A stretch of 64,000 nt of DNA, taken from an uncultured Eubacteriales bacterium. Lineage in GTDB: Bacteria; Acidobacteriota; Aminicenantia; Aminicenantales; Saccharicenantaceae. The DNA lies in the NCBI GenBank assembly GCA_964585685.1, contig CAZPEP010000005.1, positions 17,783 through 81,782 of the forward strand, in the 5' to 3' direction. Positions 45,680 through 64,000 of this stretch are shown here, one piece after another; within the stretch, counting starts at the first letter, position 1; every line of letters starts with the position of its first letter. The translations under genes and the position numbers were made by a program. The notes under the pieces were generated by a model. That model was not told the origin of the DNA. It was given only the letters and a program-made list of their open reading frames with translations, and searched no databases.

Positions 45680-46039
45680 ATGGAGAACGATCAGCGCAAG
45701 TTCCTTCGGTTCGAGTGTATGCTCCCTGCCGAGATCATAAAGATCGAGGAGCGGGATGGCCTGACCGAGAAGGCCCGGATCGACGATTTTTCAAGGGGCG
45801 GATTAAAGCTCGTCCTCAACCTGGACTTCAATTTCGTCCCCGGCGCGAAGATCGAGCTTAAGTGTTCCCTGCCCGACAAGGCCGATACGGCCCCGGCCAA
45901 GGCCGAGGTCATCTGGAGCAAGAACGAAGGCGGTACTTGGTCCCTCGGCCTGAAGATCCTGGACATGGCCCCCGAGGCCCTCTCCGAGATCCTCGATTCC
46001 TGCTACACGCATTGGCAGGAAAAGAAGCTCAAGGGCTAA
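45680..46039 (+). CDS. PilZ-domain protein (putative c-di-GMP receptor)
   Basis: Start at MENDQRKFLRFE (RxxxR), later DFSRGGLKL (D/NxSxGG) PilZ motifs. The upstream in-frame extension in the track is probably not translated. Confidence 0.6.
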   Translation: MENDQRKFLRFECMLPAEIIKIEERDGLTEKARIDDFSRGGLKLVLNLDFNFVPGAKIELKCSLPDKADTAPAKAEVIWSKNEGGTWSLGLKILDMAPEALSEILDSCYTHWQEKKLKG

Positions 46040-46092
46040 CCCCTCCGTGCTGGACAGCTGCCCGCGTCTCGGCTATAATCTTCCTCCTTCGG

Positions 46093-46165
46093 GCCAGCGT
46101 AGCTCAGTCGGTAGAGCGGCTGATTCGTAATCAGCAGGTCGGAGGTTCGATCCCTCTCGCTGGCT
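46093..46165 (+). tRNA. tRNA-Thr (anticodon CGU)
   Basis: GCCAGCG-TA-GCTC-AGTCGGTA-GAGC-G-GCTGA-TTCGTAA-TCAGC-AGGTC-GGAGG-TTCGATC-CCTCT-CGCTGGC-T. No encoded CCA. The 3' 48 nt recur three times downstream (att copies). Confidence 0.8.
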
Positions 46166-46349
46166 CTCCCATATTCCCCCCATATAGCCCTCCGGAATCA
46201 ATCATTTAGGCCGGAGGCGTGTCCGCGTTGTCGTTCCCGTCAACTCCATCGGATTCCGCTATTTTCCAGTATCTTTTGGCAAAAATTTGGTCATCGGAAT
46301 TCGCTTGCTCTTTTCGGACTACGCGATAAGATATAAACAGGATCATAAT

Positions 46350-46673
46350 ATGCCTTGGGCTTTGTTGAAGTGTGAGGATTGCGGCAGGTTTTATCGGCAT
46401 TACCCGGTCGGGGAAGTGGAGCGATGGATAAATAAGGGGATGAACCCCAGCCTCCGTAGTGACAAGGCCCACTTTGCCAGGCAGGTCAAGAAACTGGAAG
46501 CACTGTGTCCTTACTGCCGGGAAGCGCTGAACGGGATGCCCTACTTTCCCTCTCGGACCAAGTGCCGTATCTGCAATAGAGACGCCGGGCGAGATAAGCA
46601 CGGGAATTGCAGGTTTTGCGGGGGGCCCTTGGGCGTCCTTGTGAGCAAGACGTTTTCCCGCCGGAAACGCTAA
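46350..46673 (+). CDS. small Cys-rich (4x CxxC) zinc-ribbon protein, hypothetical
   Basis: MPWALLKCEDCGRF...CPYCREAL...CRICNRD...CRFCGGP. Start chosen at internal Met. Element-encoded. Confidence 0.35.
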   Translation: MPWALLKCEDCGRFYRHYPVGEVERWINKGMNPSLRSDKAHFARQVKKLEALCPYCREALNGMPYFPSRTKCRICNRDAGRDKHGNCRFCGGPLGVLVSKTFSRRKR

Positions 46674-46841
46674 AAAGGGAAAATTGCCTCGGTGGACCCT
46701 AAAAATAAATTAAAATAATTTCTAATGTCCACAACCCTTTAAACAACAATAACTTACGCCCATCCGTCGGAAAGCATAGCGATCGGACGACGTGCTCAAA
46801 ACCCCAGAAAACAGGTCTTTTTTCACCATATTCTTACTATA

Positions 46842-47189
46842 GTGAAGGCGGTAAAAATGACGAAGAAAGAAAGAGCGGACCAGGCAGTTCAAGACGTACT
46901 GAACTCGCCTCTTATACGGCATATCATTGCCAGCCTCAACCCTGACATGGCCGGCCTTCGGAGAGCGATAAGGGCCACCCTTGGGGAGGTCGCAGAGGCC
47001 GCCAGGGAGGAGTTTCATGACGAATGGGAGGAGGCCGCGCGCGGCTCCCTGACCGAGAAGGTCGCATTGGCAAACGCACTCAATGTGCCGTTCAAGAAAC
47101 TGTGGCCTCAAACCTATGATCAAGTCTCGGAGATGTTAGCTACCACGGGTATGCGTTCGAAGCCCAAGACGAAAAAAGCAAAAGGCTAA
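46842..47189 (+). CDS. hypothetical protein (element-encoded)
   Basis: 115-aa ORF, acidic/helical, no recognisable motif. Confidence 0.3.
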   Translation: MKAVKMTKKERADQAVQDVLNSPLIRHIIASLNPDMAGLRRAIRATLGEVAEAAREEFHDEWEEAARGSLTEKVALANALNVPFKKLWPQTYDQVSEMLATTGMRSKPKTKKAKG

Positions 47190-47511
47190 CTGACTGCCCA
47201 CTTCCGATGCGGCTTCTTAGATGCAGGGAAGCCGTAGGCGGCCCACCGACCGGACGCGACATCTAGTCTCAACGCGCCGCGGAAAACGCTAGGGCTCAGG
47301 CCCGGCGAAACCGAGACCCACAGGAGACTCTTATGTCTCTCAAACCCAAGGCCCCTGTCTTGACCTTCGCTGATGACATGGTCGCGCGGGACTTCTATCG
47401 CCGACTGAGGGAGAGGCTTACGGTCGCCGAGAAAACCCACCTTCTCGGAGGCGAGCCCGACCCCCTGACCTATCGCCTGAGGCTCCTTTCCCTAGCAGAA
47501 AAGCACGGCAT

Positions 47512-47709
47512 ATGAACATCGAGGAGCGTCATTTTGTGCGCCCGCAGGAGTTTGCGGGCCTTTATGGCCTGTCGGCAAAGCACGTCTATGATCTCTTGAG
47601 TCGGCGACTACTGCCGGCAACGAAGCGGAAGGGTTGCGGCTGGCTGATCGATCGCATCCGATTTGAGAAAGAGCTCGAGGATTCCATTGGAAAGCGTTAC
47701 CCAAGCTGA
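47512..47709 (+). CDS. helix-turn-helix DNA-binding protein (excisionase/AlpA-like HTH_17)
   Basis: 65 aa. FAGLYGLSAKHVYDLLSRRLLPATKRKGCGWLIDRIRFEKEL resembles MerR-superfamily excisionase-type HTH. Confidence 0.45.
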   Translation: MNIEERHFVRPQEFAGLYGLSAKHVYDLLSRRLLPATKRKGCGWLIDRIRFEKELEDSIGKRYPS

Positions 47710-49168
47710 GGGCGTTCTTGCCGGGCTCCTGATTGATCTCCCCCGGCTCGAGCAATACGAACTTGCGGACTCCATGTTCGAGGGGCGTGCCCGCCGCGTC
47801 TTCCAGAGTTTATCAAGCCTCTGGGAGGAACGCAGGGTTGAAAAGCTCGGGCCTGCCGATATCGTGGAGCTCAGCGAAAAGGCCGGGGGCGACGGCATCC
47901 TGGCCTATATCACCGAACTGATCGGACCCTGGGCGCCCGTCAACGAGGCTCTGTTCCGTGATGTTTATACCCGCTTTCGGGCCCGACAGATCAAAGGCCG
48001 CCTTCTACGGAAGGTTGAGGCCTTAGCCAAGCTCCCGTCGGGTATCGAGCTCGATATTGACGAGATCCGAGCGGATATCGACGAACTGGACCGGATCTCC
48101 GAGGCAACGGGTTCCCGTCTAGCGGAGCGGGCCTCGGGCGATGTCAAGGTTCGCGCCATCCCCTGGCTTTTCCCGGGCGTGCTGGCAACCCACATGGCGA
48201 CCGGTATCACGGGCGACGCCGGAAACGGCAAGACGCTTGTCGCCGTCGATATGTCCGCAAGGGTCACCGTCGGCAAGGCCTTCCCTCTCTACGGCAAGCC
48301 CGGAGCGCCTGTTAAAGGGCACGTCTTTTATGTCACGTCCGAGGGCGTTCCTGAAATGATCCTGGTCCCGCGGCTCATTGCCGCCGGCGCGGACCTCTCC
48401 AAGATCACGATCATCGAGGGGATGTATCTTCGCAAGGGCGAGTTCTCGATGTTCGATGTCACCCAGCACCTTCCGAAGCTGGAGAAGCGGGCGCGAGACT
48501 TCCCGGACCTCAAGCTGATCGTGCTCGATCCCATCGCCTCTTTCCTTCCCGAGCGGATAAATCCCAACCAGGCAAACAGCGTCCGCCAGGCGATGGATAG
48601 GGTCTCCAATTTGGCCTACAAGCTCGGCATTGCAGCCGTGACCGTCATGCACTTCGCTAAGGCCTCGGCGGGCGTCAAGGCCATCCACAGGACGGCCGGA
48701 AGCGGCCAATTCGAGGCGGCCCTGAAGATGTCCTGGTCCGTGATAAGGCGCGAGGGAGACGCCCGGAACGCTCGCCTCTTGGTGCCGCAAAAATCGAATA
48801 TTACGGGCGGCTATAAGAGCCTGTCCTTTGGTATTCATCAGGTCGAGTTCCCCGCCCCCGACAACCCAGAAGAGGTCATCACCACGGCCAAGATCGAATA
48901 TGGCGATCTCGTCGATGAGGATCCCGAGACGCTGATAAGCCCGTCCCAGGAAAGCGATAACCACGTTGCCAAGGCAACAGAATTCCTCTCCAAGAAGCTC
49001 AAAGAGGGGACGACGCTCTACGCGGCCCGCCTGATTGACGAGGCCGAAGACCAGGGCATCCCCAAATGGGCCCTCTATAAGGCTAAGGACCGAATAGGCA
49101 TCGAGCACGACAAGGAAGGCCACTTCCAAGGCCGGACGTTTTGGTATCTACCCAAGCGGAAAGACTGA
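47663..49168 (+). CDS. RecA-fold replication ATPase (AAA_25/RepA-like, DnaB-C-terminal-like)
   Basis: Walker A GDAGNGKTLVAVDM, Walker B-like LKLIVLDPIASF, followed by RecA-fold strands. Typical of replication/primase-helicase proteins of plasmids, ICEs and phage satellites. True start possibly downstream (MFEG...). Confidence 0.65.
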   Translation: MRKSSRIPLESVTQAEGVLAGLLIDLPRLEQYELADSMFEGRARRVFQSLSSLWEERRVEKLGPADIVELSEKAGGDGILAYITELIGPWAPVNEALFRDVYTRFRARQIKGRLLRKVEALAKLPSGIELDIDEIRADIDELDRISEATGSRLAERASGDVKVRAIPWLFPGVLATHMATGITGDAGNGKTLVAVDMSARVTVGKAFPLYGKPGAPVKGHVFYVTSEGVPEMILVPRLIAAGADLSKITIIEGMYLRKGEFSMFDVTQHLPKLEKRARDFPDLKLIVLDPIASFLPERINPNQANSVRQAMDRVSNLAYKLGIAAVTVMHFAKASAGVKAIHRTAGSGQFEAALKMSWSVIRREGDARNARLLVPQKSNITGGYKSLSFGIHQVEFPAPDNPEEVITTAKIEYGDLVDEDPETLISPSQESDNHVAKATEFLSKKLKEGTTLYAARLIDEAEDQGIPKWALYKAKDRIGIEHDKEGHFQGRTFWYLPKRKD

Positions 49169-49192
49169 TGCTCCCTAAAGCCTATATATCAA

Positions 49193-49255
49193 AACATAGG
49201 TAAACATAGGTAAACATAGGCTTCCCTATCTTCTCCTATGTTCGCCTATGTTTGC
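49193..49255. repeat. iteron-like array: 3 direct AACATAGG(TAA) repeats followed by 2 inverted CCTATGTT repeats
   Basis: aaACATAGGtaaACATAGGtaaACATAGGcttccctatcttctCCTATGTTcgCCTATGTTtgc. It lies right after the replication ATPase gene and before the putative small-terminase-like gene. Candidate origin or packaging site. Confidence 0.5.
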
Positions 49256-49449
49256 ACTTTTATAGGCTCAGAAGATAGCGGGAGGACGGCGACAGGCGCC
49301 TGCCCATTAAGCCTCATCGTCCCCCCAAGAAGCGGGGGCGACCATCTAACTGCCAATCGCATGATTATCAGGCGGGAAGGCTTAAATAATGACCAAAACT
49401 TTGCCATTCCAAGCCTTAGAGAAGCCCGTCAAAAGGAGCCCAAAACCTC

Positions 49450-50079
49450 ATGGATAATGCATCTAAGCGCAAGAAAAAGCGAAGGATAGGGCGCCCGCCC
49501 ATGCATGGAGCCTTCGCCCTGGTCTATCGGGACGAGATAGTAAGGCAATTTCCCGAGCTGACCAGGTACACCAGGGACGTTTATGACGGGCTCATGGAGG
49601 ATCTGGCGCCAGAAGGCAAGGACACCCTGCCCGTTGCTAAGCGGATCATTCTGGACAGGTTGCTCTCCAAGCTCCTAACAGCGGGTCTTCTGGACATCTA
49701 CTTGGGCCAGCACGGGATTCTACAGCGGGGGGCGCTCGAAAGGAAGGTCCTCGAATGCGAGCCTGCCGTCAATACCTGGCTGGCCGTCAATCATGCAATC
49801 CTGAGGGATCTTCAGGCTCTGGGCCTAGAGAGAAAGGAACTCGAGCCGTTGGATCTCAACCCGCTCGAGATAGCGGCGGAGATCGACGCTAGGAAGATAG
49901 CCAATGGGGCATGCGAGGTAGGGAAAATCGATCCTGGGGCATCCCAGGGGCATAAAACAGGCATTCAGGAGGCTAATGATGAAAGCAATCACGATCAAAC
50001 TGGACAGGCGGAGGCGGCTGCGCCTGACGCCAACATCGATCAAGCTGGCGGAGAAGACGATGGGGAAGTCAATTGTTGA
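49450..50079 (+). CDS. putative DNA-binding protein, terminase-small-subunit-like (tentative)
   Basis: 209 aa. N-terminal basic KRKKKRRIGRPP motif as in many phage small terminase subunits. Otherwise unassignable. Confidence 0.3.
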   Translation: MDNASKRKKKRRIGRPPMHGAFALVYRDEIVRQFPELTRYTRDVYDGLMEDLAPEGKDTLPVAKRIILDRLLSKLLTAGLLDIYLGQHGILQRGALERKVLECEPAVNTWLAVNHAILRDLQALGLERKELEPLDLNPLEIAAEIDARKIANGACEVGKIDPGASQGHKTGIQEANDESNHDQTGQAEAAAPDANIDQAGGEDDGEVNC

Positions 50080-50317
50080 AATAGGCGACCATATACAGGT
50101 GTTGTCCCCCTCGATAGAGCTGGTATCAACGGTGCTCTGGCTTCTCTTGATCGATGAGGACCCCGCGCTGACCATTCAGGGCACGGGCCAGATCCTCAAG
50201 GACTATCTCTCGGGCGCCGGCTTCTTAAAGCTGGCATGGAGGACCTGGCGGCTAAAGCGGGCATTCGGTAAATATGGACGGGCGCTCAAAGAGTTTGCCC
50301 GTGAGTTTGGAGGTTAA
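49976..50317 (+). CDS. hypothetical protein, possibly tail-assembly-chaperone-like (overlaps previous ORF in another frame, directly upstream of tape-measure gene)
   Basis: 113 aa. Position and overlap reminiscent of gpG/gpGT chaperone ORFs preceding tape-measure genes. No sequence motif recognised. Confidence 0.25.
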   Translation: MMKAITIKLDRRRRLRLTPTSIKLAEKTMGKSIVEIGDHIQVLSPSIELVSTVLWLLLIDEDPALTIQGTGQILKDYLSGAGFLKLAWRTWRLKRAFGKYGRALKEFAREFGG

Positions 50318-50318
50318 T

Positions 50319-52637
50319 ATGCCATTCAATGCGGGTAGTCTAGTCGCAACGCTGGAATTAAACACCAAGGGCTGGACGGAGAAGATCCAGGCGGTCCAGA
50401 AGGACAAACAAGCGCTTCTGACCTCCGCCGCCAATATCGGCAAGGGGTTCCAGGACATGGGCCTCAAGATGACGGCAGCCGGCGGCGCGCTCGTCTTGGG
50501 TCTCGGCGCGATGATAAAGAAGACAGCCAACGCCGGGGACGCATTTTGGGACCTGAGCCAGAAGACGGGGATCTCGGTTGAAACGCTGTCCTCGTTCAAG
50601 CTGGCGGCGGATACCTCGGGAACCTCTATCGACGGCTTTGCGGTGGGGATGCGGGGATTGTCCAGGGCCGTCGGCGATGCCAAGACAGGCACGGGTGACG
50701 CAAAGAAAGCGTTCGATGCCCTGGGCGTGTCATTCGTGGATGCTGACGGGAAGGCGCGTCCGCTCGATCAGCTCTTCCTTGATCTCGCCGGGAAGTTCTC
50801 CGGCATGGAGGACGGGGCGACGAAGACCGACCTGGCCATGAAACTGTTCGGGCGGTCCGGGGTGGAGCTCATCCCCATGCTCAACCTCGGAAAGCAGGGG
50901 CTCAAGGACTTGACCGACCGGGCCAAGGAGCTCGGCATCACGTTCAACACCGAGGCCGCGAAGAAATGCGACGAGTTCAATGACAGCCTGGATATTCTCA
51001 GGGCTTCGGTCGGGGCGTCGTTCCGGGGGATCGCGCTGGAGTTGATCCCGACCCTTCAGGACCTTGCTACAAAGGTCGCGTCGGCGATCGGCAAGGTCAT
51101 CGAATGGACCAATGCACATCCCGCCTTGACGGAGGCCATCGGCAAGCTCGCCCTGGGCCTGGCCGGCATCGGGACGATCCTCGCGGTTTCGGGGCCGGTT
51201 CTCATGGGAATCGGGGCGCTGATGACCAACATTGGGGCGATCAAGCTCTTGGCCTTGAAATCCATTGTGTTCACGTTCGCCCTGGCCGGTACGGCGATCG
51301 TCGCGATGGGCGTCGTAAAAATGATTGACGATTTCAAGCGGCTCCGGCTCGAAGGGGAGACGACGGCGGAGGCGCTCAGGACGATGTTCCTGAATTTCAA
51401 TCCGTTCAAGAGCCTCTCCCGTGACAAGATCAGCGAGACGGTCCTGGCGATGGATGAAGCGCGGAGCTCCTCCATCAACCTGACGGGCGCAGTCAGCCTG
51501 CTCGATATCGCGTTTAATGCCATCAAGGGAGCCATCGAGGACGGGGCGGTCAAGCCTGCGAAGACCCTGGCCAGCACCGTCACGGACGTTCTGATCCCCG
51601 CGGTGGACAATGCCAAGCTCGCCCTCGCCAGCATGGTGCAGACGATCGCCCTCGAGGTCACGCCGAAGACCGCGGGGCTTGAGGCGCTCATCAAGGACTT
51701 CACCCCGGCGCTCCAGGGCGTCGATTGGCAGGCACTTCCCGAAGGCGCGAAGCCGGCCCTGGATCAGGTTGGGATTGCCGTCGAGACGATGAGAGAGAGG
51801 ATCGCGGACAATTTCGCGGGATTATTCCTTGATATCAAATCGGGATTCGTCGATACGTTCACCCGTTCCGTCGATGAGGGATGGGGCTTCTCGCGTTTTA
51901 TGGATGAGATATTTAAGACGATCCGGACCTCTCTGATCAGAACGATCGGCGAGATGCTCGCTGACTGGATGTTCGGATTCATCGATAAGATCAAGGCCTC
52001 GGCAACATCTGCCGGGAAGACGATCGCCGAAAGCATCGGAGGCGCGACCGGGGGCATCGGGAAGGCGGCCGGGTCGATGGCCGGCTCCTTCCTTTCGGCG
52101 GCGGGATCTATCGCCAGCATCGTCACCGCCGTCGCCTCGGTCGTCTCCCTGCTCAAGAGCCCTCCCACGGGCGCGGGCGACGGCATGGGCCGCGTCGTCG
52201 AGCGACAGGACCAGCAGACCTCGCTCCTCACGCGCATATTTGAGGACATCAACGGAAATCTCAAGCCGACGCTCTGGTCGATCTCCAGCAAGAGCGATAC
52301 CCAGATCAAGCGTCTGGATACGGCCAACGCCTGGCTCAAGTCGATGGATGCGGCGCTCAAGGGAATGAAGGGCGCGGCAAGCGGGGCCGTCTCGACGCAG
52401 ACAGAAATGATGGTGGTCCACGGCACGCGGAGCGATCCCGAGTACATCATGCGAGCCTCTCAGCTCAACGCGGGCATCATGCCCAAGGCGACCAGCGGCG
52501 GCGGGCGACAGGCGCCCGTCGTCGTCAATATCAAGCCCGTGGTCATTGAAAAACGGGACCGCTATATCATCGAGTTTGTTCAGGACAGCCTGAATCACGG
52601 CACGCTGAGGATCCCCGCCTCGGCGGTAGGCGGGTGA
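50319..52637 (+). CDS. phage tail tape-measure-like protein (TP901-family N-terminal core)
   Basis: Start ATG 50319 preceded by GGAGG RBS. N-terminal region FKLAADTSGTSIDGFAVGMRGLSRAVGDAKTGTGDAKKAFDALGVSF...LAMKLFGRSGVELIPMLNLGKQGLKDLTDRAKELGI matches the conserved TP901-type TMP core. Internal TM helices and Gly/Ala-rich repeats follow. Confidence 0.7.
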   Translation: MPFNAGSLVATLELNTKGWTEKIQAVQKDKQALLTSAANIGKGFQDMGLKMTAAGGALVLGLGAMIKKTANAGDAFWDLSQKTGISVETLSSFKLAADTSGTSIDGFAVGMRGLSRAVGDAKTGTGDAKKAFDALGVSFVDADGKARPLDQLFLDLAGKFSGMEDGATKTDLAMKLFGRSGVELIPMLNLGKQGLKDLTDRAKELGITFNTEAAKKCDEFNDSLDILRASVGASFRGIALELIPTLQDLATKVASAIGKVIEWTNAHPALTEAIGKLALGLAGIGTILAVSGPVLMGIGALMTNIGAIKLLALKSIVFTFALAGTAIVAMGVVKMIDDFKRLRLEGETTAEALRTMFLNFNPFKSLSRDKISETVLAMDEARSSSINLTGAVSLLDIAFNAIKGAIEDGAVKPAKTLASTVTDVLIPAVDNAKLALASMVQTIALEVTPKTAGLEALIKDFTPALQGVDWQALPEGAKPALDQVGIAVETMRERIADNFAGLFLDIKSGFVDTFTRSVDEGWGFSRFMDEIFKTIRTSLIRTIGEMLADWMFGFIDKIKASATSAGKTIAESIGGATGGIGKAAGSMAGSFLSAAGSIASIVTAVASVVSLLKSPPTGAGDGMGRVVERQDQQTSLLTRIFEDINGNLKPTLWSISSKSDTQIKRLDTANAWLKSMDAALKGMKGAASGAVSTQTEMMVVHGTRSDPEYIMRASQLNAGIMPKATSGGGRQAPVVVNIKPVVIEKRDRYIIEFVQDSLNHGTLRIPASAVGG

Positions 52638-52638
52638 C

Positions 52639-54120
52639 ATGGATATAACGGACGCCCTGCACGACAAGACAATCTTCGGGCCGCTGTTCAAGGACCCGAA
52701 GACCTGGCACGCATGGGAGGTCTATCTCCGGGGGCTTTTCGGACTGCCGATCGAGGGCGCCGAGGATCTGGCTCTTTTTAGGGACTGCACCGGGCTCGAG
52801 GCGCCCCCGCGCGAGCGGGCCCGGGAGAGCTATGTCATCGCCGGGAGGCGGAGCGGCAAGAGTTATACATCGGCGCTCATCGCTGCGTTCCTGGCCTGCT
52901 TCAAGGACTGGAAGCCTTATCTGAGTCCGGGGGAGCGCGGCTGGATCTTCGTCATCGCCGTGGACAAGGCCCAGGCCGGGATCATCAAGGCGTACATCTC
53001 GGGCATCTTCCATCGGGTGAAATGCCTGAAGGGCCTGATCGCAAAAGAGACACAAGAGACGATCGAGCTCAAGAACGGGATCTCGATCGCCGTGAAGACG
53101 GCGTCCTTCCGTTCCGTCCGGGGCTATACAATTTTAGCGGCGTTGCTCGAAGAGATCGCATTCGCAAGAAGCGAGGACAGCGCGAACCCCGACAAGGAAA
53201 TTTTAGCGGCCGTCCGCCCGGCGCTGGCGACGATCCCCGACAGCCTGCTCCTCGGCATCAGCACACCCTATAGCCGGAGCGGGGTCCTTTGGGAGCAATT
53301 CAAGAACTACTACGGGAAGCCTGGCGGGCCGCTGATCTGGAAGGCGGCGACGCGGATAATGAACCCGACGATCGACAGCCGGCTCATCGCTAACGCGCTG
53401 AAAGAGGACCCGCAGGCGGCCCGGGCGGAATGGGAGGCCGAATGGCGCGAAGATATCGAAGCGTTCCTTACGCAGGAGCTCGTCGAGGCCGTCACTATCA
53501 CGGGCCGGTTCGAGTTGCCGAGGATTGCCGACGCCGAATACTACGGCTTTATAGACCCGAGCGGCGGCCGGCAAGACTCTTTCACGATGGGGATCTGTCA
53601 CCGGGATAAAACGGGAAAGATCGTCCTGGACGTTCTCCGGGAGCGCCGTCCGCCCTTCCAGCCGCAGGGCGTCGTCGAAGAGTTCTCGGCCGTCCTGAAA
53701 TCGTTCAAGGTCTCGAGCGTCGAGTCTGATAAATACGCCGGCGAATGGGTCCCCGAGGCCTTCAGAAAATACGATATCGAAGTTAAGAACGCCGACATGA
53801 CGGCGAGCGAGCTGTATCTGAATCTTCTCCCGCTTGTCGCGAACGGGACGGTTGAACTTCTGGACAATAAGCGGCTGCTCGCGCAGCTCACAGGGCTTGA
53901 GCGTCGGGTCCGGAGCGGAGGGAAGGACCTTGTTTCCCATTATGCAGGGGGGCATGACGATCTCGCGAACGCCGCGGCCGGAGCCTGCGTCATGGTCGCG
54001 CAGACAGAGGCCGATGGCGGGGGCCTGTTTATTTCGGCCGGGTCCGTCTATGGCGACGACGTTCGGCCGGCGTTTCAACATTCTCCAGGCTGGCGGACGC
54101 TGACCTGGGGAAAGAACTGA
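52639..54120 (+). CDS. phage terminase large-subunit-like protein (ATPase + RNaseH-like nuclease)
   Basis: Walker A AGRRSGKS, acidic Walker B region (IFVIAVDKAQ), C-terminal nuclease-like motifs (FIDPSGG...DSFTMGI..., GGHDDLANA). Confidence 0.6.
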   Translation: MDITDALHDKTIFGPLFKDPKTWHAWEVYLRGLFGLPIEGAEDLALFRDCTGLEAPPRERARESYVIAGRRSGKSYTSALIAAFLACFKDWKPYLSPGERGWIFVIAVDKAQAGIIKAYISGIFHRVKCLKGLIAKETQETIELKNGISIAVKTASFRSVRGYTILAALLEEIAFARSEDSANPDKEILAAVRPALATIPDSLLLGISTPYSRSGVLWEQFKNYYGKPGGPLIWKAATRIMNPTIDSRLIANALKEDPQAARAEWEAEWREDIEAFLTQELVEAVTITGRFELPRIADAEYYGFIDPSGGRQDSFTMGICHRDKTGKIVLDVLRERRPPFQPQGVVEEFSAVLKSFKVSSVESDKYAGEWVPEAFRKYDIEVKNADMTASELYLNLLPLVANGTVELLDNKRLLAQLTGLERRVRSGGKDLVSHYAGGHDDLANAAAGACVMVAQTEADGGGLFISAGSVYGDDVRPAFQHSPGWRTLTWGKN

Positions 54121-54166
54121 TGGGGCAAGCGAGGCCCGGAACTACGCGCTGACGGAGGTTTGCCGA

Positions 54167-54442
54167 ATGGAAGTATTTGCAGGGGGTTTACCGTGGGACG
54201 TAAAGGACGGGGACCTGGAGGGCCTATTCAAGCCCTTCGGGGAGGTCGCGCGGATTAGCGTCGTCCGCGATCCGAGGACGGGAGAGGCGCGCGGCTTCGG
54301 CTTTGTAGAAATGCCGAATGACGGCGAGGCCAGGGCCGCGATCACGGCCTTGAATCAGACGGAGCTTCGCGGAAGGACGCTTCGCGTTTCCGAATCGCTG
54401 AAATCGCGCGGACCATATCCGAATCATGGGAGGACAAATTGA
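54167..54442 (+). CDS. RRM-domain RNA-binding protein
   Basis: 91 aa. RNP-2 (EVFAGGLPW) and RNP-1 (RGFGFVEM) motifs. Gly-poor short C-tail. Confidence 0.7.
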   Translation: MEVFAGGLPWDVKDGDLEGLFKPFGEVARISVVRDPRTGEARGFGFVEMPNDGEARAAITALNQTELRGRTLRVSESLKSRGPYPNHGRTN

Positions 54443-55233
54443 AATACGAACAGACGATCCTTGAAGCGTTTCAGGCTCGCGAAAAAGAGATCAAGGCCGA
54501 GTGCGACAATCTTGATCGCGAAATGGACAAGAAAAGGCGCGACCATGAGAAAATCCAGGCCGACGCCCTGGCGAAGCTCACGGGCGCGCGGGAAGCCCTG
54601 GCCGCTATGAAGGCCGATTATCTCACGCTCGAATCCGGGCTCGCGGCCCAGGCCGAAGGCGAGCTCAGGACAACGGAGGCGACGGCTGAGAAAGTGAAGG
54701 CGGGCGAGGTTTCGCTTCGGAACTTCATGGAGGACGGGCTTTCGGCAAGCGCGATCAAAGCGAAGGCCCAGGCCCAGGCAAACGAAAAGCTCAGGGAGGG
54801 TCGGAGGATCATTCTCGAAAAGGCCCTGGAGATATTCAAGCTCGAAGCCGTGGAAGCCGAGGCGAGGAAAAATATTATTTTCTGCGCGACCTATCCGGGG
54901 CAAACTCAGGTCAAGAAACTCAAGGCCGAAGTCGAAACGCTTGAGCGTAGGATCGGCGAAGTTTTTAGCGGTTATTATTTGGCGACGGCCGATATGGACC
55001 GGGCCAAGCTCAACGTCGCGCTGAGCGAAGGGAAGTCGGTTTCCGGCACGACCTGGGACGCGCTTTCGGTCGATGAGCTTAAGGACTTGAGATTCGATCC
55101 GCGCGTTCAGAAATACGCGGGGGACCTCGAAGCGTTCATCGGCACGGCCGACCCGGCCAAACGGTTCAATGTGTTCCTTCGCGTCGCGGCCTGGGACAAT
55201 ACGCCGGGCTTGGCGATCCTGGCGGCATTATGA
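54439..55233 (+). CDS. coiled-coil hypothetical protein (element-encoded)
   Basis: 264 aa, Ala/Glu/Lys-rich heptad-like N-terminal half. ATGA-type overlap with RRM gene. Confidence 0.35.
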   Translation: MKYEQTILEAFQAREKEIKAECDNLDREMDKKRRDHEKIQADALAKLTGAREALAAMKADYLTLESGLAAQAEGELRTTEATAEKVKAGEVSLRNFMEDGLSASAIKAKAQAQANEKLREGRRIILEKALEIFKLEAVEAEARKNIIFCATYPGQTQVKKLKAEVETLERRIGEVFSGYYLATADMDRAKLNVALSEGKSVSGTTWDALSVDELKDLRFDPRVQKYAGDLEAFIGTADPAKRFNVFLRVAAWDNTPGLAILAAL

Positions 55234-55718
55234 ACAAGCGCACATTCACGGCGAAGGAGATCGCGACACTCTTAACAAGCCAAGCCGGGAGCGATATTGA
55301 ATTGAACCTGGGCAACGGGCTGCGGGCCGTCCGCATGGCGACGAAGGACAGGCCCGTTTTCCAGATCGATCGGGCGGGGAAAGACCTGCATAATCTGGAC
55401 GACGCGGACCCGGCCGAACTCGCGGAGCTATCGGCTATCGTGTGGACCTTCGCGGACCAGTTTGGGCCTACGGAGGACGCCCTGGAGGAGCCCTTGACGC
55501 CGGAGCGGTTTAAAGACAAGCCGGAGCCGGAGAACATCGAGCCGGACCCGTTAGGGCTCACGCCGGACCATTTGCGGGGGATCATCGCGGACCCTGGGCT
55601 CGCGCGAAGGCTCGCGGCAGGAACAGCAACGGCCGAAGATTTGATTGTGCCGGACGCGCTCAAGGACGAGCCCGACGACAGCGATCCATTGGCCTATCCG
55701 GGGGACGCCTCTATTTGA
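55230..55718 (+). CDS. hypothetical acidic protein (element-encoded)
   Basis: 162 aa, overlaps previous gene by 4 bp. Confidence 0.3.
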   Translation: MNKRTFTAKEIATLLTSQAGSDIELNLGNGLRAVRMATKDRPVFQIDRAGKDLHNLDDADPAELAELSAIVWTFADQFGPTEDALEEPLTPERFKDKPEPENIEPDPLGLTPDHLRGIIADPGLARRLAAGTATAEDLIVPDALKDEPDDSDPLAYPGDASI

Positions 55719-55959
55719 CGCGCTTGGATTCGAGCCAGGCCTCAACGTCGGCCTTCTTGAACAAGACATGGCGCTTCAGTTTGAAGTACGGAATGGGGCT
55801 ATCCGGGTCGTTCATCCGCCGGAGCAAGGAGCCCCTAGAGATTTTTAGATATTCCTGAACCTGCTCCCTGGTAAGGGTCTCGTCTGAGAAGCTCGTCTTT
55901 TCGGACATTTTGACTGACTTCATCGACACAAGGATAAGTTCCCTGGCCTTAAAAGTCAA
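55711..55959 (-). CDS. AlpA/excisionase-like helix-turn-helix DNA-binding protein
   Basis: 82 aa. LTREQVQEYLKISRGSLLRRMNDPDSPIPYFKL...VLFKKADVEAWLESK resembles AlpA/Xis-family HTH. Lies beside the integrase region. Confidence 0.55.
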   Translation of the reverse strand: MTFKARELILVSMKSVKMSEKTSFSDETLTREQVQEYLKISRGSLLRRMNDPDSPIPYFKLKRHVLFKKADVEAWLESKRVK

Positions 55960-56001
55960 GGAGCAACAAAATGCTTGACTTTCGTTTAACTAGACCCCAT
56001 T

Positions 56002-56412
56002 ATGTTTAAGGACGGTCCAAATGGCCGTTACTTAATCAAGGAGGGCTTAATGGCAAAGACAAATGGAAAGGGGCCGGGGGAGAACCGCGACGCATGGGAA
56101 GGGGTGGCCCGCGTTGAATGGCTCAAGGGGTTTCCTTTCGTCGGCGAACCCGACGCACAATTCGAGGCAAGGGCTGGGATTGTCCCTGCCGCGGGCATCC
56201 AGGGCTCGAGCCTTTTGCTGGCGCTGAACTTCTCAAAGAACGAGACAACCGAAGGCGTCAACCTCACCTTGTCATTCGACCAGGCGAAGGTGTTGTCTGA
56301 AATTCTACACAATTTCGTCGCCTCCCGGGAAATGGCACATCAGGCGGTCCGCGGCGCATTCGTCAATCCCGAGGGCGCCGTGCGTTGGGGAACCTATCCT
56401 CGGGCGCTTTGA
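56002..56412 (+). CDS. hypothetical protein (element-encoded)
   Basis: 136-aa ORF between excisionase-like and integrase genes. Alternative start MAKTNGKG. Confidence 0.3.
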   Translation: MFKDGPNGRYLIKEGLMAKTNGKGPGENRDAWEGVARVEWLKGFPFVGEPDAQFEARAGIVPAAGIQGSSLLLALNFSKNETTEGVNLTLSFDQAKVLSEILHNFVASREMAHQAVRGAFVNPEGAVRWGTYPRAL

Positions 56413-56490
56413 TCTTCTTTCAGAGGCCGGGGCTTCGGTCCCGGCCCGAGTTAAGAGGATCAACCGAATCCTCAAAAGGAAAACGGAAGA

Positions 56491-57564
56491 ATGAAGATTT
56501 ACAAGAACGAAAAAGGCAAGTGGTGCTATCGTTTCATGGCCAACGGCCAGCAGGCCCGTAAAGTCGTCGGCCTCTCGAAGCAGGAATGCGAGGCTGCGGC
56601 CTGCGCGGCCCGGGACAAGATCAAACGCAGCGGCTTCGGGCTCAAGGGAACGCCCAAGAATCTCTTTTTTGAGGACTTCGCGAAGGAATACCTGGACCGC
56701 TATTCCAGGGTGTACAAACGGTCCTGGAGAAGCGACGAGACCTCCTGCAAGCACCTGGCCGAGTTCTTTAAGGGCAAGTACCTTTCGGCAATCACCCGGA
56801 GCCTCGTCGAACACTACCAGGCCAAGCGCAAGGATGAGGTCGCGCCGGCTACGGTGAACCTCGAGATCGCCTGCCTGAAGAAGATGCTGAGCAAGGCCGT
56901 GGATTGGGATTACCTCGATTCTAATGTTGCCGCCAGGGTCAAAAAGTTCAAGCTGAACAATGCCCGGGAGAGGGTCCTTGACGCCGACGAGGCCCGGCGC
57001 CTGATCGAATGCGCGGCGCCTGCGCTCCAGCCGGTTCTCATCATAGCCCTAAAGACGGGAATGCGGCGGGGCGAGATCCTGAGCCTGAAGTGGTCGGACG
57101 TGAATTTCATCAAGGCCTTCATCCAGATCAAGGACACGAAGAGCGGAGAGCCCCGCAAGGTTCCCCTGAGCCCCGCTGCCCGGGAAGCCCTGAAGGCCCT
57201 CCCGCGAACCTCCGATTTCATCTTCTACAACGCCGAGACGAAAACGCACGTCAAGAGCGTCGTGACGGCGTTCGATACGGCCTGCACCAGGGCCGAGATC
57301 AAGGGGCTCCGCTTCCACGACCTCCGGCATACGTTCGCGACCTGGTACATGGAGAGGGGCGGCGACGTTGTGGCCCTGTCCAAGATCCTCGGGCATCATT
57401 CGCTTCAGATGACGCTCCGGTACTGCAATCCGACAGAGGGCGCGATGCTCCAGGCAGTTGAGAAGATGGACGCGATCTTGGGAAAACCCGAGGCCGAAAC
57501 CGGCAAAAATTTGGTCATCGAGAAGCCCGAAGCTGTCGTAACTGCGCCATTATTAAGCAATTAG
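56491..57564 (+). CDS. tyrosine-type site-specific recombinase / phage integrase
   Basis: 357 aa. Catalytic-domain motifs R (TGMRRGEIL), HDLRHTF, LGHHSLQMTLRY (H-x-x-R...Y). N-terminal SAM-like domain. The gene ends 14 bp before the att copy. Confidence 0.85.
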   Translation: MKIYKNEKGKWCYRFMANGQQARKVVGLSKQECEAAACAARDKIKRSGFGLKGTPKNLFFEDFAKEYLDRYSRVYKRSWRSDETSCKHLAEFFKGKYLSAITRSLVEHYQAKRKDEVAPATVNLEIACLKKMLSKAVDWDYLDSNVAARVKKFKLNNARERVLDADEARRLIECAAPALQPVLIIALKTGMRRGEILSLKWSDVNFIKAFIQIKDTKSGEPRKVPLSPAAREALKALPRTSDFIFYNAETKTHVKSVVTAFDTACTRAEIKGLRFHDLRHTFATWYMERGGDVVALSKILGHHSLQMTLRYCNPTEGAMLQAVEKMDAILGKPEAETGKNLVIEKPEAVVTAPLLSN

Positions 57565-57577
57565 ACATGAGGCCCTT

Positions 57578-57627
57578 GCGATTCGTAATCAGCAGGTCGG
57601 AGGTTCGATCCCTCTCGCTGGCTCCAT
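57578..57627 (+). repeat. att copy 1: direct repeat of tRNA-Thr 3' 48 nt with encoded CCA
   Basis: GATTCGTAATCAGCAGGTCGGAGGTTCGATCCCTCTCGCTGGCTCCA is identical to tRNA positions 28-72. It is followed by TCAAAACTCCCCATATGAAGCGCCAGAATCA, related to sequence after the tRNA gene and after copy 3. Confidence 0.7.
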
Positions 57628-57730
57628 CAAAACTCCCCATATGAAGCGCCAGAATCAGAGACTTAGACCTCTAGCCGGAGGTCTGCCCGTCTTGCCTGCG
57701 CTTGCCCCATAAAACAAGGAATTAGCCCCT

Positions 57731-57811
57731 AATGTGGCACAAATGTGGCACAAGCGTGGAACACGCCAATAATAACCTTTGAATAGGCGTTCCGGACTCC
57801 GGATTCAAAGG
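57731..57811. repeat. three tandem 11-bp direct repeats (AATGTGGCACA x2, AGCGTGGAACA) plus 36-bp palindrome CCTTTGAATAGG...CCGGATTCAAAGG; arm-site-like / regulatory
   Basis: Direct repeats at 57731-57765. Palindrome 57776-57811 with perfect 9-bp arms. Upstream of kinase gene and adjacent to a tRNA-like fragment. Confidence 0.35.
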
Positions 57812-57840
57812 TCGAAGGCTCGAATCCTCTCAGGCGCGCC
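57807..57840 (+). other. tRNA-Arg-like 3' fragment (variable loop, T-arm, acceptor 3' strand), second copy
   Basis: AAAGGTCGAAGGCTCGAATCCTCTCAGGCGCGCC aligns with AAAGGTCGGAGGTTCGAATCCTTTCAGGCACGCC of the 6167..6237 remnant (about 6 differences over 34 nt). Confidence 0.3.
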
Positions 57841-57902
57841 CCGTTTGACTTCCCGCCTATCCCTCTGTTAATCTGAGTCCAAGTTAGAGGAGGGGACCAA
57901 AC

Positions 57903-60900: not shown

Positions 60901-61043
60901 CCAAATTATATGAGCGGAAAGGCTTGAAGGCGAAAGCGGTCGAGCAATACAAGCGCTTCCTCGACCTCTGGAAGGACGCCGAGCCCGGCCTGCCCGAGGT
61001 TGCGGATGTGAATAAGCGGCTGGTTGGGCTGATTGGCAATTGA
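57903..61043 (+). CDS. transmembrane Ser/Thr protein kinase with N-terminal zinc ribbon and C-terminal TPR-repeat domain
   Basis: 1046 aa. [19 protein letters not shown] zinc ribbon. Kinase motifs ([24 protein letters not shown]). One TM helix ([17 protein letters not shown]). About 600 aa of TPR-like repeats. Confidence 0.8.
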
Positions 61044-61070
61044 TCGACACTTCGGGGCAGCCCCGAAGGT

Positions 61071-61197
61071 GAGCACAATCTGAGCACAACCGATTTTGTG
61101 TCCTACTTATATATCTTTATTATCAATAATATAAAACGCTAGGGCAGTTGGTTCGTAATCAGCAGGTCGGAGGTTCGATCCCTCTCGCTGGCTCCAT
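61071..61197 (+). repeat. conserved junction (GAGCACAATCTGAGCACAAYCGATTTTG...TTATTATCA) fused to att copy 2 (tRNA-Thr 3' 48 nt + CCA)
   Basis: Shares ~125 bp at ~85% identity with 63315..63440. The att part TTGGTTCGTAATCAGCAGGTCGGAGGTTCGATCCCTCTCGCTGGCTCCA lies at 61148-61197. Preceded by hairpin CTTCGGGGCAGCCCCGAAG after the kinase stop. Confidence 0.7.
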
Positions 61198-61382
61198 CCA
61201 TATTCCCTGAGAAAGCGGCTGGGAAATCAACGTCCCCAGGACTCGAAATATGCCGCGATTTGACACAACTCGTACCCGTTTTAAGTTTTAAAAGAACACC
61301 ATTAAACACAATCTGGGCGGGGACGAATCGGTTCGAGCTATACAAAATTGCTTTCGCGGTCTGGATATGTCAGTTCAAATCT

Positions 61383-63107
61383 TTATCTGTTACCGCGCCA
61401 GAGGTCATTCATCGAACCAAACAAGGAAACTTCCGAATCAAGGCCATATCCTCCGAAGAGCCACAGATGGCCCTCTGGATCGATCCAGGACACGGCATAT
61501 TGTTTTGGCCAAGGGCAGTTTGAGGGATCGGCTACGCCCTTGGTTCCGTAAACGCCCGGCTGATTTAAGGAATCGGTGCCGGATACCCAGGCCCATTCCA
61601 GGGTTGCCGGGTCAAACTTCCACAGGTCATTGAAGAGATTTGCCGCAGGCCCCCAACTCCCCGCAAACACTCCCCCCCCGAAGAGCCAGAGTTGATTGTG
61701 GGCATCTATCCAGGACACAGCGCCCAGTCTCCCCCCTGGGACGTTCGATGGATCGGCCAGGCCCTTTGATCCGTATACGCCTGGCTGGTCAGCAATATTG
61801 CTGCCGGATACCCAGGTCCATTCAACGGTTACCGGGTCGAATTTCCAAAGGTCGTTGAGATACCCCGAATCGTTCGCTGAAACAATGCCAACTCCTCCGA
61901 AGAGCCAGAGGTTGCCTTGGGAATCGAACCAGGATACAGCCCCCTCCCTAGCCCCAGGGCAGTTCGATGGATCGGCCAGACCCTTTGTGCCGTATACTCC
62001 TGGCTGTTCTTGCGAGTCTCCGCCGGATACCCAGGTCCATTCAACGGTTACCGGGTCGAATTTCCAGAGGTCGTTGAGATACCCCCAATCGTTCGCTGAA
62101 ACAATGCCCCGGCCTCCGAAGAGCCAGAGGTTGCCTTGGGAATCGAACCAGGATACAGCCAGCTCCCTAGCCCCAGGGCAGTTCGAGGGATCGGCCACGC
62201 CCTTGGTTCCGTAAACGCCCGGCTGATCTCGAGTATCGCTCCCGGATATCCATGTCCAATTCTGGGTTGCCGGGGCATATTTCCAAAGGTCGTTGTAGTA
62301 GTAACCCGTATAGGTCCAATCGTAGACATATCCTCCGAAGAGCCAGAGGTTGCCTTGGGAATCGAGCCAGGATACAGCCCTCTCCCTAGCCCCAGGGATG
62401 TTTGAGGGAGAGGGAACACCCTTAGTGCCGTAGGTCCCAGCTTGAGAGATGGTATCGCTGCCGGAAATCCAGGTCCATTCGAGAGAGATCGGTTCGACGA
62501 TGGTCGCGGTCGCAGAACCGGACATGGTGGTGTCCTCGACCGACGTGGCCGTGATCAAGACTGTGGGCGCGGCGGGCACGACGGTCGGTGCCGTATACAG
62601 GCCCGTGTTCGAGATGGTGCCGCACTCGGATCCCGTGCAGCTCGAACCCGAAACGGTCCAGGTCACGCTATTATCGACGGCGTTCTGGAGGGTGGCGGTG
62701 AACTGTTTTGTCCCGCCGGCCGCGACGAGGGAATCGGAAGGGGAGACCGTAACCACGACGGCCGCCAGAATGGTGATCGTGGCGCTGGCCGACTTGGAGG
62801 TATCGGCCGCGGAGGTGGCTCTGACCGTTATTGTCGCGGGGCTGGGAACGCTCCCTGGGGCCGTGTAAAGTCCGTCGCTACTGATCATACCGCACGCGGC
62901 GCCGCTGCACCCGGTGCCGGACAGATTCCAGGTCACCGCGGTATTTGCCGAGTTGCGCACGTTCGCCCAAAACCGCATCGATCTGGCAACGTGAACGTTC
63001 GCTGAGCCAGGCGTCAAAGTAACGCTGATCGCGGCGGAATCCTCGCCAGAGCTGCAGCCCCAGACGATAAAAAGCAAGCCCGCGAGAAGAATGCGTGCTT
63101 TAGACAT
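61383..63107 (-). CDS. lipoprotein with two Ig-like (BIG) domains and six Kelch-type beta-propeller repeats
   Basis: Start at MSKARILLAGLLFIVWGC (lipobox-like). Two ~90-aa Ig-like segments with CxGxxCG motifs. Six repeats of ...NDLWKFDP...W.WVSG...QPGVYGTKG..DP.N.PGAR..AVSW.D..GNLWLFGG. Confidence 0.65.
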   Translation of the reverse strand: MSKARILLAGLLFIVWGCSSGEDSAAISVTLTPGSANVHVARSMRFWANVRNSANTAVTWNLSGTGCSGAACGMISSDGLYTAPGSVPSPATITVRATSAADTSKSASATITILAAVVVTVSPSDSLVAAGGTKQFTATLQNAVDNSVTWTVSGSSCTGSECGTISNTGLYTAPTVVPAAPTVLITATSVEDTTMSGSATATIVEPISLEWTWISGSDTISQAGTYGTKGVPSPSNIPGARERAVSWLDSQGNLWLFGGYVYDWTYTGYYYNDLWKYAPATQNWTWISGSDTRDQPGVYGTKGVADPSNCPGARELAVSWFDSQGNLWLFGGRGIVSANDWGYLNDLWKFDPVTVEWTWVSGGDSQEQPGVYGTKGLADPSNCPGAREGAVSWFDSQGNLWLFGGVGIVSANDSGYLNDLWKFDPVTVEWTWVSGSNIADQPGVYGSKGLADPSNVPGGRLGAVSWIDAHNQLWLFGGGVFAGSWGPAANLFNDLWKFDPATLEWAWVSGTDSLNQPGVYGTKGVADPSNCPWPKQYAVSWIDPEGHLWLFGGYGLDSEVSLFGSMNDLWRGNR

Positions 63108-63314
63108 GTCGACCTCCTGATCCGCTTTATTTATGGCCATTCATGGGAAAAGTTGCACTAATTCCATGATGGCCGCCCCGGAATTTCCGCGTTCTTGGCA
63201 TCGGAGTCTCCCTCCTTAGTGACAACAATATAGTTTGGCCGGGCTGGGGAGCTGTCAAGAAGTTGTCAATAAAGTTAAAAAGTTTGGTCAAGACAACATG
63301 GCAGCACCGCAGGC

Positions 63315-63440
63315 GAGCACAATCTGAGCACAATCGATTTTGCCTACCCGCTAAGCACGTTTATTATCAGTAACGTGTAACACTAGGCAAGTTGGTTCGT
63401 AATCAGCAGGTCGGAGGTTCGATCCCTCTCGCTGGCTCCA
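63315..63440 (+). repeat. conserved junction fused to att copy 3 (tRNA-Thr 3' 48 nt + CCA)
   Basis: GAGCACAATCTGAGCACAATCGATTTTG...TTATTATCAGTAACG...CTAGGCAAGTTGGTTCGTAATCAGCAGGTCGGAGGTTCGATCCCTCTCGCTGGCTCCA. Followed by TAGAATTCCCCCATATGTGGCTACAGATTCAATCATTTAGG, related to sequence after the tRNA gene (46166-46210). Confidence 0.7.
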
Positions 63441-63697
63441 TAGAATTCCCCCATATGTGGCTACAGATTCAATCATTTAGGGGAGATCCAGCGCTGATAG
63501 GGTTTTCAGTCCTTTTAAGCAGGTTTAAGCTCTTTTTAGCGTTCAACACGACAAAAAGTCGACAGTAGCCTTTAGCACCGCGCGATCACCGGCACCAAAA
63601 AGGGTCTCTCCTAATGGACCAGCACTTGGTGCTCGGAATTCGGAATAAGGATACTGAAGGGAATCCTGCGGACGCGAGTGCTAGAGACCTGGGCGCC

Positions 63698-64000
63698 TTA
63701 CCACTCTCGATATTTCCAATCCTGCATAAGCTTACTAATCTTCCCGAAGGTAAGCTGTAGAACAAAGCCGTGCGATACAGGCGCTGCATAAACCAGGTTG
63801 CCTATTGGAATAGCCACCGCCCCAGATTCTTCGCTTGACCACGAAGCAATGAAGATTTCTTCGCCCTGAGTGACAGAAGTCGGCTGGCCAAATTTTATGA
63901 GGGCCTCATCATATGTCAATTGTCCCATTAGACCATGCATGGTCGAGGAAAATTGTTCCATTCTAGTATTGGTTGTCGCACAACCAATGCAGGATATCAC
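63698..64000 (-). CDS. hypothetical protein (partial, runs off window end), lower-GC DNA
   Basis: 100-aa open frame to window edge, ~48% GC by eye. First gene of a further cassette downstream of att copy 3. Confidence 0.25.
   Translation of the reverse strand: MISCIGCATTNTRMEQFSSTMHGLMGQLTYDEALIKFGQPTSVTQGEEIFIASWSSEESGAVAIPIGNLVYAAPVSHGFVLQLTFGKISKLMQDWKYREW

Follow-up and report, generated by a model that had tools for sequence, protein, structure and literature searches.

In the window, a 64,000-nt stretch of contig CAZPEP010000005.1 from an uncultured member of the Aminicenantales, an intact tRNA-Thr(CGU) gene is followed by three displaced copies of its own 3' half, and these copies divide the DNA downstream into an integrase-bearing phage-like element (element 1, or segment 1), two small cargo cassettes without an integrase (segments 2 and 3) and the beginning of a fourth unit (Table 1). 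Stacking of elements at tRNA genes is well known, and the placement of attachment (att) sites around the anticodon is classical. The integrase-less cassettes described here form a large, stereotyped family with a conserved boundary that occurs across Aminicenantes, and are not random relics.

Table 1. Features of the tRNA-Thr array and its host flank (window coordinates)
Feature	Position	Strand	Remark
SMC gene, host flank	41709-45404	-	
PilZ-like gene, host flank	45680-46039		
Promoter-like site of tRNA-Thr gene, TGGACA-17-TATAAT	46051..46079	+	11/12 matches
Intact tRNA-Thr(CGU)	46093..46165	+	ARAGORN; Rfam tRNA model, 70.5 bits
Element 1, phage-like integrative element	46167..57579	+	~11.4 kb
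19-nt repeat GGCAAAAATTTGGTCATCG, candidate arm-type site	46278..46296	+	P' side of element 1
Helicase/replication protein	47663..49168	+	AAA_25; DnaB/primase-like PHROGs
Tape-measure-like protein	50274..52637	+	
Terminase-large-subunit-like (TerL-like) protein	52639..54120	+	phrog_2, 2e-21
Excisionase-like HTH_17 protein (Xis)	55711..55959	-	
Tyrosine integrase (Int; PF00589)	56491..57564	+	the window's only one
19-nt repeat GGCAAAAATTTGGTCATCG, second copy	57502..57520	+	P side, within 3' end of int
tRNA-Thr 3' fragment, copy 1 (+CCA)	57580..57626	+	attR of element 1, left boundary of next unit
Class-A trailer module (CCCCATAT, hairpin, GTGGCACAA twice at 57734-57753)	57627..57796	+	runs into Arg-type boundary arm
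Decayed tRNA-Arg(CCG)-type 3' fragment, internal boundary in segment 2	57797..57840	+	4 mismatches to the consensus (78 fragments of this type)
Conserved promoter-like module TTGACTTCCC...TGTTAATCT	57845..57878	+	ahead of kinase gene
Zn-ribbon/Ser-Thr kinase/TPR protein, 1046 aa	57903..61043	+	cassette 2 cargo, chimeric gene
M1 block GAGCACAAtctGAGCACAAccgATTTTG, iteron-like	61071..61098	+	candidate arm-type sites
M2, pseudo-tRNA 5' half	61099..61151	+	conserved but decayed
tRNA-Thr 3' fragment, copy 2 (+CCA)	61152..61196	+	exact identity block 61152-61194
Big_2/Kelch beta-propeller protein	61383..63140	-	cassette 3 cargo
M1 block, second copy, segment 3 end	63315..63342	+	exact match to family consensus
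tRNA-Thr 3' fragment, copy 3 (+CCA)	63396..63440	+	exact identity block 63396-63438
Start of fourth unit	63441..64000	+	cut by window end; trailer 79% like element 1's

ARAGORN calls two tRNAs in the window, tRNA-Gln(CTG) at 6449-6522 (-) and tRNA-Thr(CGT) at 46093-46166 (+), and the Rfam tRNA model (E<=1, 45500-64000) matches nothing except the intact tRNA-Thr, in line with the single full gene recorded in an earlier, sequence-only reading of this DNA. The promoter-like site 14 nt upstream of the gene is near-consensus and of sigma-70 type. A 39-nt core from the tRNA 3' half has four exact plus-strand matches, at 46127, 57585, 61155 and 63399, where none is expected (100 shuffles). Around the displaced cores, the identity blocks measure 45 nt for copy 1 (57580-57624, equal to 46122-46166) and 43 nt for copies 2 and 3 (61152-61194 and 63396-63438, both equal to 46124-46166); the three copies reported earlier are thus real and co-oriented, although they had been drawn 2-4 nt too generously on the left. 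Each block starts in the anticodon stem/loop (tRNA positions 30-32), the canonical anticodon-loop sublocation of tRNA islands, and ends one base beyond the discriminator. An intact tDNA with three displaced, co-oriented 3' fragments, all on the plus strand, is also the end structure by which the Islander method defines an island. After GGCT the gene reads CTCC and the copies read CCAT, so that CCA is encoded by the copies alone, as had been noticed.

The sequence-only reading had further claimed that each copy is followed by related arm sequence. This holds after the gene and two of the copies (46177-46210 is 79% identical to 63448-63481 and 65% to 57634-57667), but another class of sequence follows 61197. 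Its impression that the segments differ in composition is borne out by GC content, which is 0.65-0.72 in the host flank and lower, at 0.44-0.65, within the segments, and, as it stated, the cargo differs from segment to segment and the integrase is confined to segment 1.

Element 1 has the full make-up of a tRNA-targeted island by Islander's definition: an intact tDNA, a co-oriented 3' fragment, an internal integrase and an identity block that starts in the anticodon loop. The tRNA-Thr gene is its attL, with the 5' half contributed by the host and the 3' half and trailer by the element, and the integrase gene stops 15 nt ahead of the first displaced fragment. The window contains two exact copies of the repeat GGCAAAAATTTGGTCATCG and no more (0 expected by chance); one lies 112 nt in from the left end of the element, the other 60 nt in from its right end, and we take these copies to be its probable arm-type sites. 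Within 11.4 kb the element packs Int, Xis, an AAA_25 helicase, and TerL-like and tape-measure-like proteins, and it also encodes an RRM-domain protein; the TerL-like protein is 53% identical to a protein of an IMG/VR contig. No capsid or portal was recognised among its proteins in Pfam and PHROG scans, in which five had no Pfam match and six no PHROG match. Equipped with an integrase, an excisionase, a replication helicase, phage-type genes (packaging, tail-like) and arm repeats of its own, element 1 is autonomous, and it may represent a satellite or minimal phage family of Aminicenantes. The gene order TerL-RRM-Int recurs on an 8.6-kb IMG/VR contig and in a relative with an S78 prohead protease (L208 and L209; L numbers denote loci of our comparison).

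Three further assemblies contain the integrase sequence, and the copies of the element there are 99.6-100% identical; the integrase family comprises 1833 proteins at E<=1e-20. Related integrases likewise stand at the right end, beside a fragment of a different tRNA after which cassettes follow (L212, L209). In L212 (2204-2530), the order is an integrase with 78% identity to that of the window, a tRNA-Arg(ACG)-like fragment, the CCCCATATA motif, two copies of GTGGACAAC, a TTGACTTC promoter and a 1040-aa kinase; given this layout of integrase, fragment, repeat and kinase, the same design is used at another tRNA. In L209, a 26-nt tRNA 3' repeat is present twice.

The next two segments are built differently. 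Segment 2 (57627-61151) is composite: a trailer, an Arg-type fragment, a promoter-like module, a ribosome-binding site, the kinase gene, GAGCACAAtctGAGCACAA (M1) and a pseudo-tRNA that abuts the second displaced core. Of 248 trailers, 10 have the tandem pair of GTGGCACAA at +109..112, as against none of 188 controls. The module that ends segment 3 (61197-63395) is 81-90% identical to that of segment 2 over ~160 nt. A Pfam scan and a tblastn search for remnants found no integrase in either segment, so neither contains the one integrase per island that the tRNA-island definition demands; with exact cores at both ends and only cargo genes inside, both would, by sequence, have attL/attR-like flanks without integration or transfer genes. 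The Kelch gene of segment 3 contains five tandem 219-nt (73-aa) repeats at 61435-62517, 63-89% identical, that correspond to Kelch blades, and other arrays have homologues with 50-60% identity (L175, L193, L159).

The kinase gene of segment 2 is itself a mosaic. Its kinase domain is ~100% identical to that of a gene in a sister contig (L001, below) over the first 350 aa, the remainder only 16-40%, with the switch near 58950, and at the same point its GC content falls from 0.60 to 0.45-0.50. This pattern indicates a probable swapping of sensor domains between paralogous cassettes. An anti-phage role for the kinase was considered and set aside, as its PADLOC matches (PD-T4-6, MAD6) span the generic Hanks kinase domain only. 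An exact-sequence look-up returned no identical record for the Kelch, kinase or PilZ protein.

How widespread are such cassettes? We compared 205 loci, among them at least 120 stretches from a core scan of metagenome contigs and 83 stretches from one genome per GTDB species, counting fragments and tRNAs with up to 4 mismatches. The genome stretches are nearly all titled Candidatus Aminicenantes or Acidobacteriota, and arrays are present in 39 of the 83, from Aminicenantes-type metagenome-assembled genomes (MAGs), as well as in more than 120 metagenome contigs; MFD MAG contigs of up to 1.5 Mb carry arrays with 6-7 cores per contig. Altogether the loci hold 99 intact tRNAs, 191 fragments and 91 complete cassettes of 0.6-11.4 kb (median 3.0 kb), mostly with one to three genes, element 1 being the largest. 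A common type of boundary, ending in GGTGAGCACAATCTGAGCACAATCGATTTTGCGCCCCAnCTAATTACCTTTATTATCAGTAAGTTGAAACGCTAGGCCAGTTGGTTC directly before the core, precedes 138 of the 191 fragments. This module of ~170 nt consists of two copies of GAGCACAA, a decayed pseudo-tRNA 5' half and an exact 3' half, and it is mostly 80-99% conserved per column over ~100 nt upstream of the core, next to 69-90% identity in host flanks of these loci, two measures that are not like-for-like. M1 is followed by a Thr core in 129 of its 137 occurrences, and the GAGCACAA and GTGGCACAA repeats have an 11-nt period. As functional tRNA-like RNAs the boundaries could be discounted: they have no Rfam match, no consensus cloverleaf emerges from 141 unique sequences, and 33 of these 141 break an anticodon-stem pair.

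The cargo is diverse, with 165 Pfam families among 139 cluster representatives, and its commonest member is the kinase, with 77 kinase-domain open reading frames, 76 of them co-oriented with the tRNA, and a presence in 24 of the 91 complete cassettes. The kinase stop codon usually lies 110-180 nt from the core, the conserved C-terminus abutting M1, and kinase cassettes carry the conserved promoter-like module. Across the 205 loci, searches for integrases by phmmer, a catalytic-motif regular expression, tblastn with two integrases, and Pfam on the 139 cargo representatives yielded only relatives of element 1 (L001-3, L085 and, partially, L048) and a classical tRNA-adjacent integrase (L126); a weak match in L084 proved to be a kinase. 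Scans of viral contigs for the core and for M1 gave no match.

The history of the array can be read in its relatives. The closest GTDB representative genomes are ~90-93% identical to the window, and a 52-kb JGI contig (L001) is 99.6% identical to it over 46491-58952 and diverges thereafter. The third cassette of L001 encodes a 632-aa TPR protein in place of the Kelch protein, and in L150, a MAG of the nearest species among the loci, this TPR cassette comes first behind the tRNA, with a cassette identity of 88.6% and a flank identity of 89.8%. That the third cassette of L001 is the first of L150 is as expected from a later insertion of element 1 and the kinase cassette at the array's head; element 1 would be its latest arrival. 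The sequence right after the tRNA differs in all nearest relatives (L127, L150, L166, L199). More distant Aminicenantes have empty sites, in which the SMC-PilZ-tRNA synteny is kept, the tRNA lacks CCA, and a T-rich trailer/terminator and conserved genes follow (L068, L111, L074/L049/L189). CCA is encoded in 164 of the 191 fragments and 70 of the 99 intact genes, and in none of the empty-site tRNAs; since CCA and trailers thus differ from those of empty sites, the mobile units alter the 3' end and terminator of the tRNA gene that they rebuild. When L001 was followed downstream, a 522-aa protein of this contig had its homologues in relatives at conserved places that are unrelated and contain no cores.

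These comparisons sustain the two central proposals of the sequence-only reading. Repeated integration at one tRNA attB agrees with the anticodon-loop start of the blocks, with the integrase, excisionase and arm repeats of element 1, with the order of cassettes in L001 and L150 and with the empty sites, which also exclude that the whole region is conserved core; and the displacement of older units downstream by newer ones fits L001, whose element 1 is identical and whose third cassette stands first in L150. Its suggestion that the later cassettes are either decayed or mobilised in trans fares less evenly, as segments 2 and 3 are not merely decayed and belong to the stereotyped integrase-less family, whereas mobilisation in trans is part of the model proposed below.

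Cassettes also change neighbours. Where segments are homologous between loci (at least 85% identity), the neighbour is conserved in 33 comparisons and unrelated in 191. Fragments of tRNA-Arg(CCG) type have 78 matches inside Thr arrays, with no intact tRNA-Arg close to them, and hybrid cores join the anticodon arm of Arg to the T-arm and acceptor of Thr, or the reverse (L005 2273, L032 541, L098 6098; L084 1587, 3697). Similarity with the downstream cassette starts at the core or further in.

A separate observation concerns the other end of the window, where a tRNA-Arg(CCG)-like pseudo-tRNA with C33 and a decayed 5' half lies at 6168-6211 (-), ~240 nt downstream of the tRNA-Gln(CTG) gene. ARAGORN makes no call on it, and the AT-rich spacer at 6212-6448 resembles the start of segment 4 and the trailer of element 1; the region 6168-6522 is probably a second small integration scar or array.

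We propose, and think it more likely than not, that the array arose by integrase-type accretion at one attB, joined by cassettes mobilised in trans in the manner of satellites or of cis-mobilizable elements (CIMEs), and by homologous reshuffling between boundaries. An incoming circular unit would carry a pseudo-tRNA attP made up of arm repeats, a decayed 5' half, a stretch identical to the tRNA between its anticodon loop and 3' end, and a trailer. A tyrosine integrase would recombine this attP with the tRNA-Thr attB, with the exchange in or near the anticodon loop, so that the gene takes over the newcomer's 3' half and trailer while its former 3' half is displaced downstream. The kinase and Kelch units would be non-autonomous, consisting of cargo and boundary module (and, for the kinase cassette, its own promoter-like module), and, in the way of CIMEs and satellites, would either be moved in trans by an integrase encoded elsewhere or be excised jointly with neighbours; the helper integrase would use the GAGCACAA and GTGGCACAA repeats as arm sites. 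Homologous recombination between near-identical boundaries would then reshuffle cassettes and yield chimeras.

Several observations weigh against such a model. No integrase or integrase remnant lies near the ~190 cassette boundaries, no integrase with matching GAGCACAA arm sites was found, and element 1 is no obvious helper because its arm repeats differ from GAGCACAA. Circular or tandem-duplicate junctions were absent from the assemblies, and recent transfer of cassettes between species is not supported, since cassette identity roughly equals flank identity. Rather than stopping at the anticodon loop, similarity with the upstream cassette mostly runs out at -70..-50, where M1 has its right edge, or at +30..+70, and the hybrid cores imply, to judge by their sequence, crossovers in a 15-nt stretch in the T-arm region common to both tRNAs. 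Breakpoints, hybrid cores and the chimeric kinase lead us to conclude that homologous recombination or gene conversion between modules acts on top of insertion. Short-read metagenome contigs can, moreover, be chimeric at repeats, but the same architecture on large MFD MAG contigs argues that the variation in neighbours is real.

A bolder version, which we regard as possible but less likely than not, is a tRNA-anchored, integron-like platform, in which an unlinked recombinase, of the host or of a rare helper, would insert, excise and shuffle single-gene cassettes at tRNA-Thr and tRNA-Arg-type sites and so diversify signalling and accessory genes across the phylum. Its commonest cargo may then be a self-promoted Ser/Thr kinase with swappable TPR sensor domains.

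Could homologous recombination account for everything beyond element 1? The other cassettes would then no longer be moved, or never have been moved, by a site-specific recombinase, and the ~170-nt modules would serve as portable homology through which cassettes and kinase segments are multiplied, lost and exchanged by RecA-dependent unequal crossing-over, by gene conversion and by taking up foreign DNA. Much of the mosaicism fits: breakpoints fall on the two longest near-identical blocks, M1 and the core; the stretch at -60..0 goes with neither of its flanks; hybrid cores combine Thr and Arg parts in either order; identity and GC both change abruptly within the chimeric kinase gene; the cassettes have no linked integrase; and cassette divergence tracks host divergence. 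We nevertheless consider this account unlikely on its own, as it leaves unexplained how unrelated genes (165 Pfam families in 139 representatives) came to lie between the same modules, why tRNA identity starts exactly at the anticodon loop, why the repeats have the 11-nt period typical of arm-type sites, and why a non-coding module is kept at 80-99% per column against 69-90% in the flanks, even if those two figures are not like-for-like.

It is more doubtful still that segments 2-4 are fixed relics, that is, autonomous elements that lost their integrase by deletion, the classical origin of CIMEs, and are now immobile. Decay of this kind is the usual origin of tandem structures (PMC5704250), and the leftover trailer and arm pieces and the decayed Arg-type fragment in segment 2 are what it would leave behind. 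Yet tblastn found no remnants of integrase or transfer genes, the units are small (median 3 kb), kinase cassettes keep one orientation (76 of 77) and a conserved promoter-like module, and neighbours are extensively shuffled; the one stereotyped, conserved boundary, in 138 of 191 fragments, argues, as far as sequence can, for a dedicated cassette family rather than for decay of integrative and conjugative elements (ICEs) or integrative and mobilizable ones (IMEs). The view that no integration took place, and that the copies are additional tRNA-Thr genes, perhaps duplicates, or a product of misassembly at a repeat, deserves hardly any credence, for although the boundary module retains a decayed homologue of the tRNA 5' half and metagenome assemblers may mis-join at repeats, ARAGORN and the Rfam tRNA model call the intact gene only, the 141 unique boundaries form no cloverleaf and 33 have a broken anticodon-stem pair, which refutes complete tRNA-Thr genes in place of fragments, and independent assemblies show this architecture again, among them contigs as long as 1.5 Mb.

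Several known systems resemble parts of this arrangement, and we found no description of such arrays in Aminicenantes in the papers searched. CIME accretion in the ICESt1/ICESt3 family shares with it attL/attR-type repeats of the 3' end of a target gene, units that lack an integrase, successive site-specific insertion and a mobilisation that would depend on the integrase of another element; CIMEs are decayed ICEs or IMEs, few per site (PMC5704250), whereas here a large family of 1-5 kb cassettes shares one boundary module, with up to 6-7 cores per contig and no conjugation context. The ssrA islands of Dehalococcoides likewise stand in tandem after one small-RNA gene, with 3'-end direct repeats, a conserved motif upstream of each repeat and some units without an integration module that have been proposed to be CIMEs (PMC3146451), and in both systems strain-specific cargo is led by one paralogous family, rdhA there and Ser/Thr kinases here. 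Those islands target the tmRNA gene, have a 20-bp repeat and encode the CcrB-like serine recombinase DsiB in 16 islands (PMC3146451). The array in the window differs in its tRNA target, its 43-45-nt repeat and its tyrosine integrase, and integrases are almost always absent from its relatives; it has neither a DsiB/CcrB-type module nor an ssrA target, the sole integrase of the window being of the tyrosine type (PF00589).

Tycheposons of Prochlorococcus also use a tyrosine recombinase at tRNA genes, newcomers pushing older elements inward and leaving scattered partial tRNAs and remnants, but they bring along an integrase of their own and in most cases a replication module, and no conserved family of integrase-less pseudo-tRNA cassettes has been described among them (bioRxiv 10.1101/2020.12.28.424599). 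Their islands combine cargo-carrying elements with ones resembling phage-inducible chromosomal islands, to which element 1 can be compared by gene content alone (Int, Xis, helicase, packaging-type genes). Integrons, too, are arrays of small, diverse, mostly single-gene cassettes with a conserved end module and strain-variable content; here, by contrast, the repeats are direct and tRNA-derived, cassettes often have their own promoter, and orientation is mixed, the Kelch gene being reversed. No intI or attI was found at the head of the array, where the tRNA-Thr gene is preceded by the PilZ and SMC genes and the upstream flanks contain no recombinase, and a consensus fold of 141 boundaries with RNA parameters revealed no conserved hairpin upstream of the core. 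We reject an integron in the strict sense, which would have intI/attI and attC sites.

If the cassettes are mobilised in trans, they would be a second, independently evolved solution to building cassette arrays beside integrons, and would show by what route a poorly known sediment lineage renews its accessory genes and brings its Ser/Thr kinases into new combinations with sensor domains. Their boundary sequence can be used as primers or as a search pattern for excision in sediment metagenomes. Islander, which asks that each tandem member have its own integrase, found arrays of three or more only 4 times in 2168 genomes (PMC4383910). The later, integrase-less units seen here would be invisible to that rule, and island finders that demand one integrase per tDNA fragment miss such arrays entirely. 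Set beside all these systems, the process is ordinary; what departs from the ordinary is the stereotyped integrase-less cassette family itself, together with its scale and the kinases it carries.

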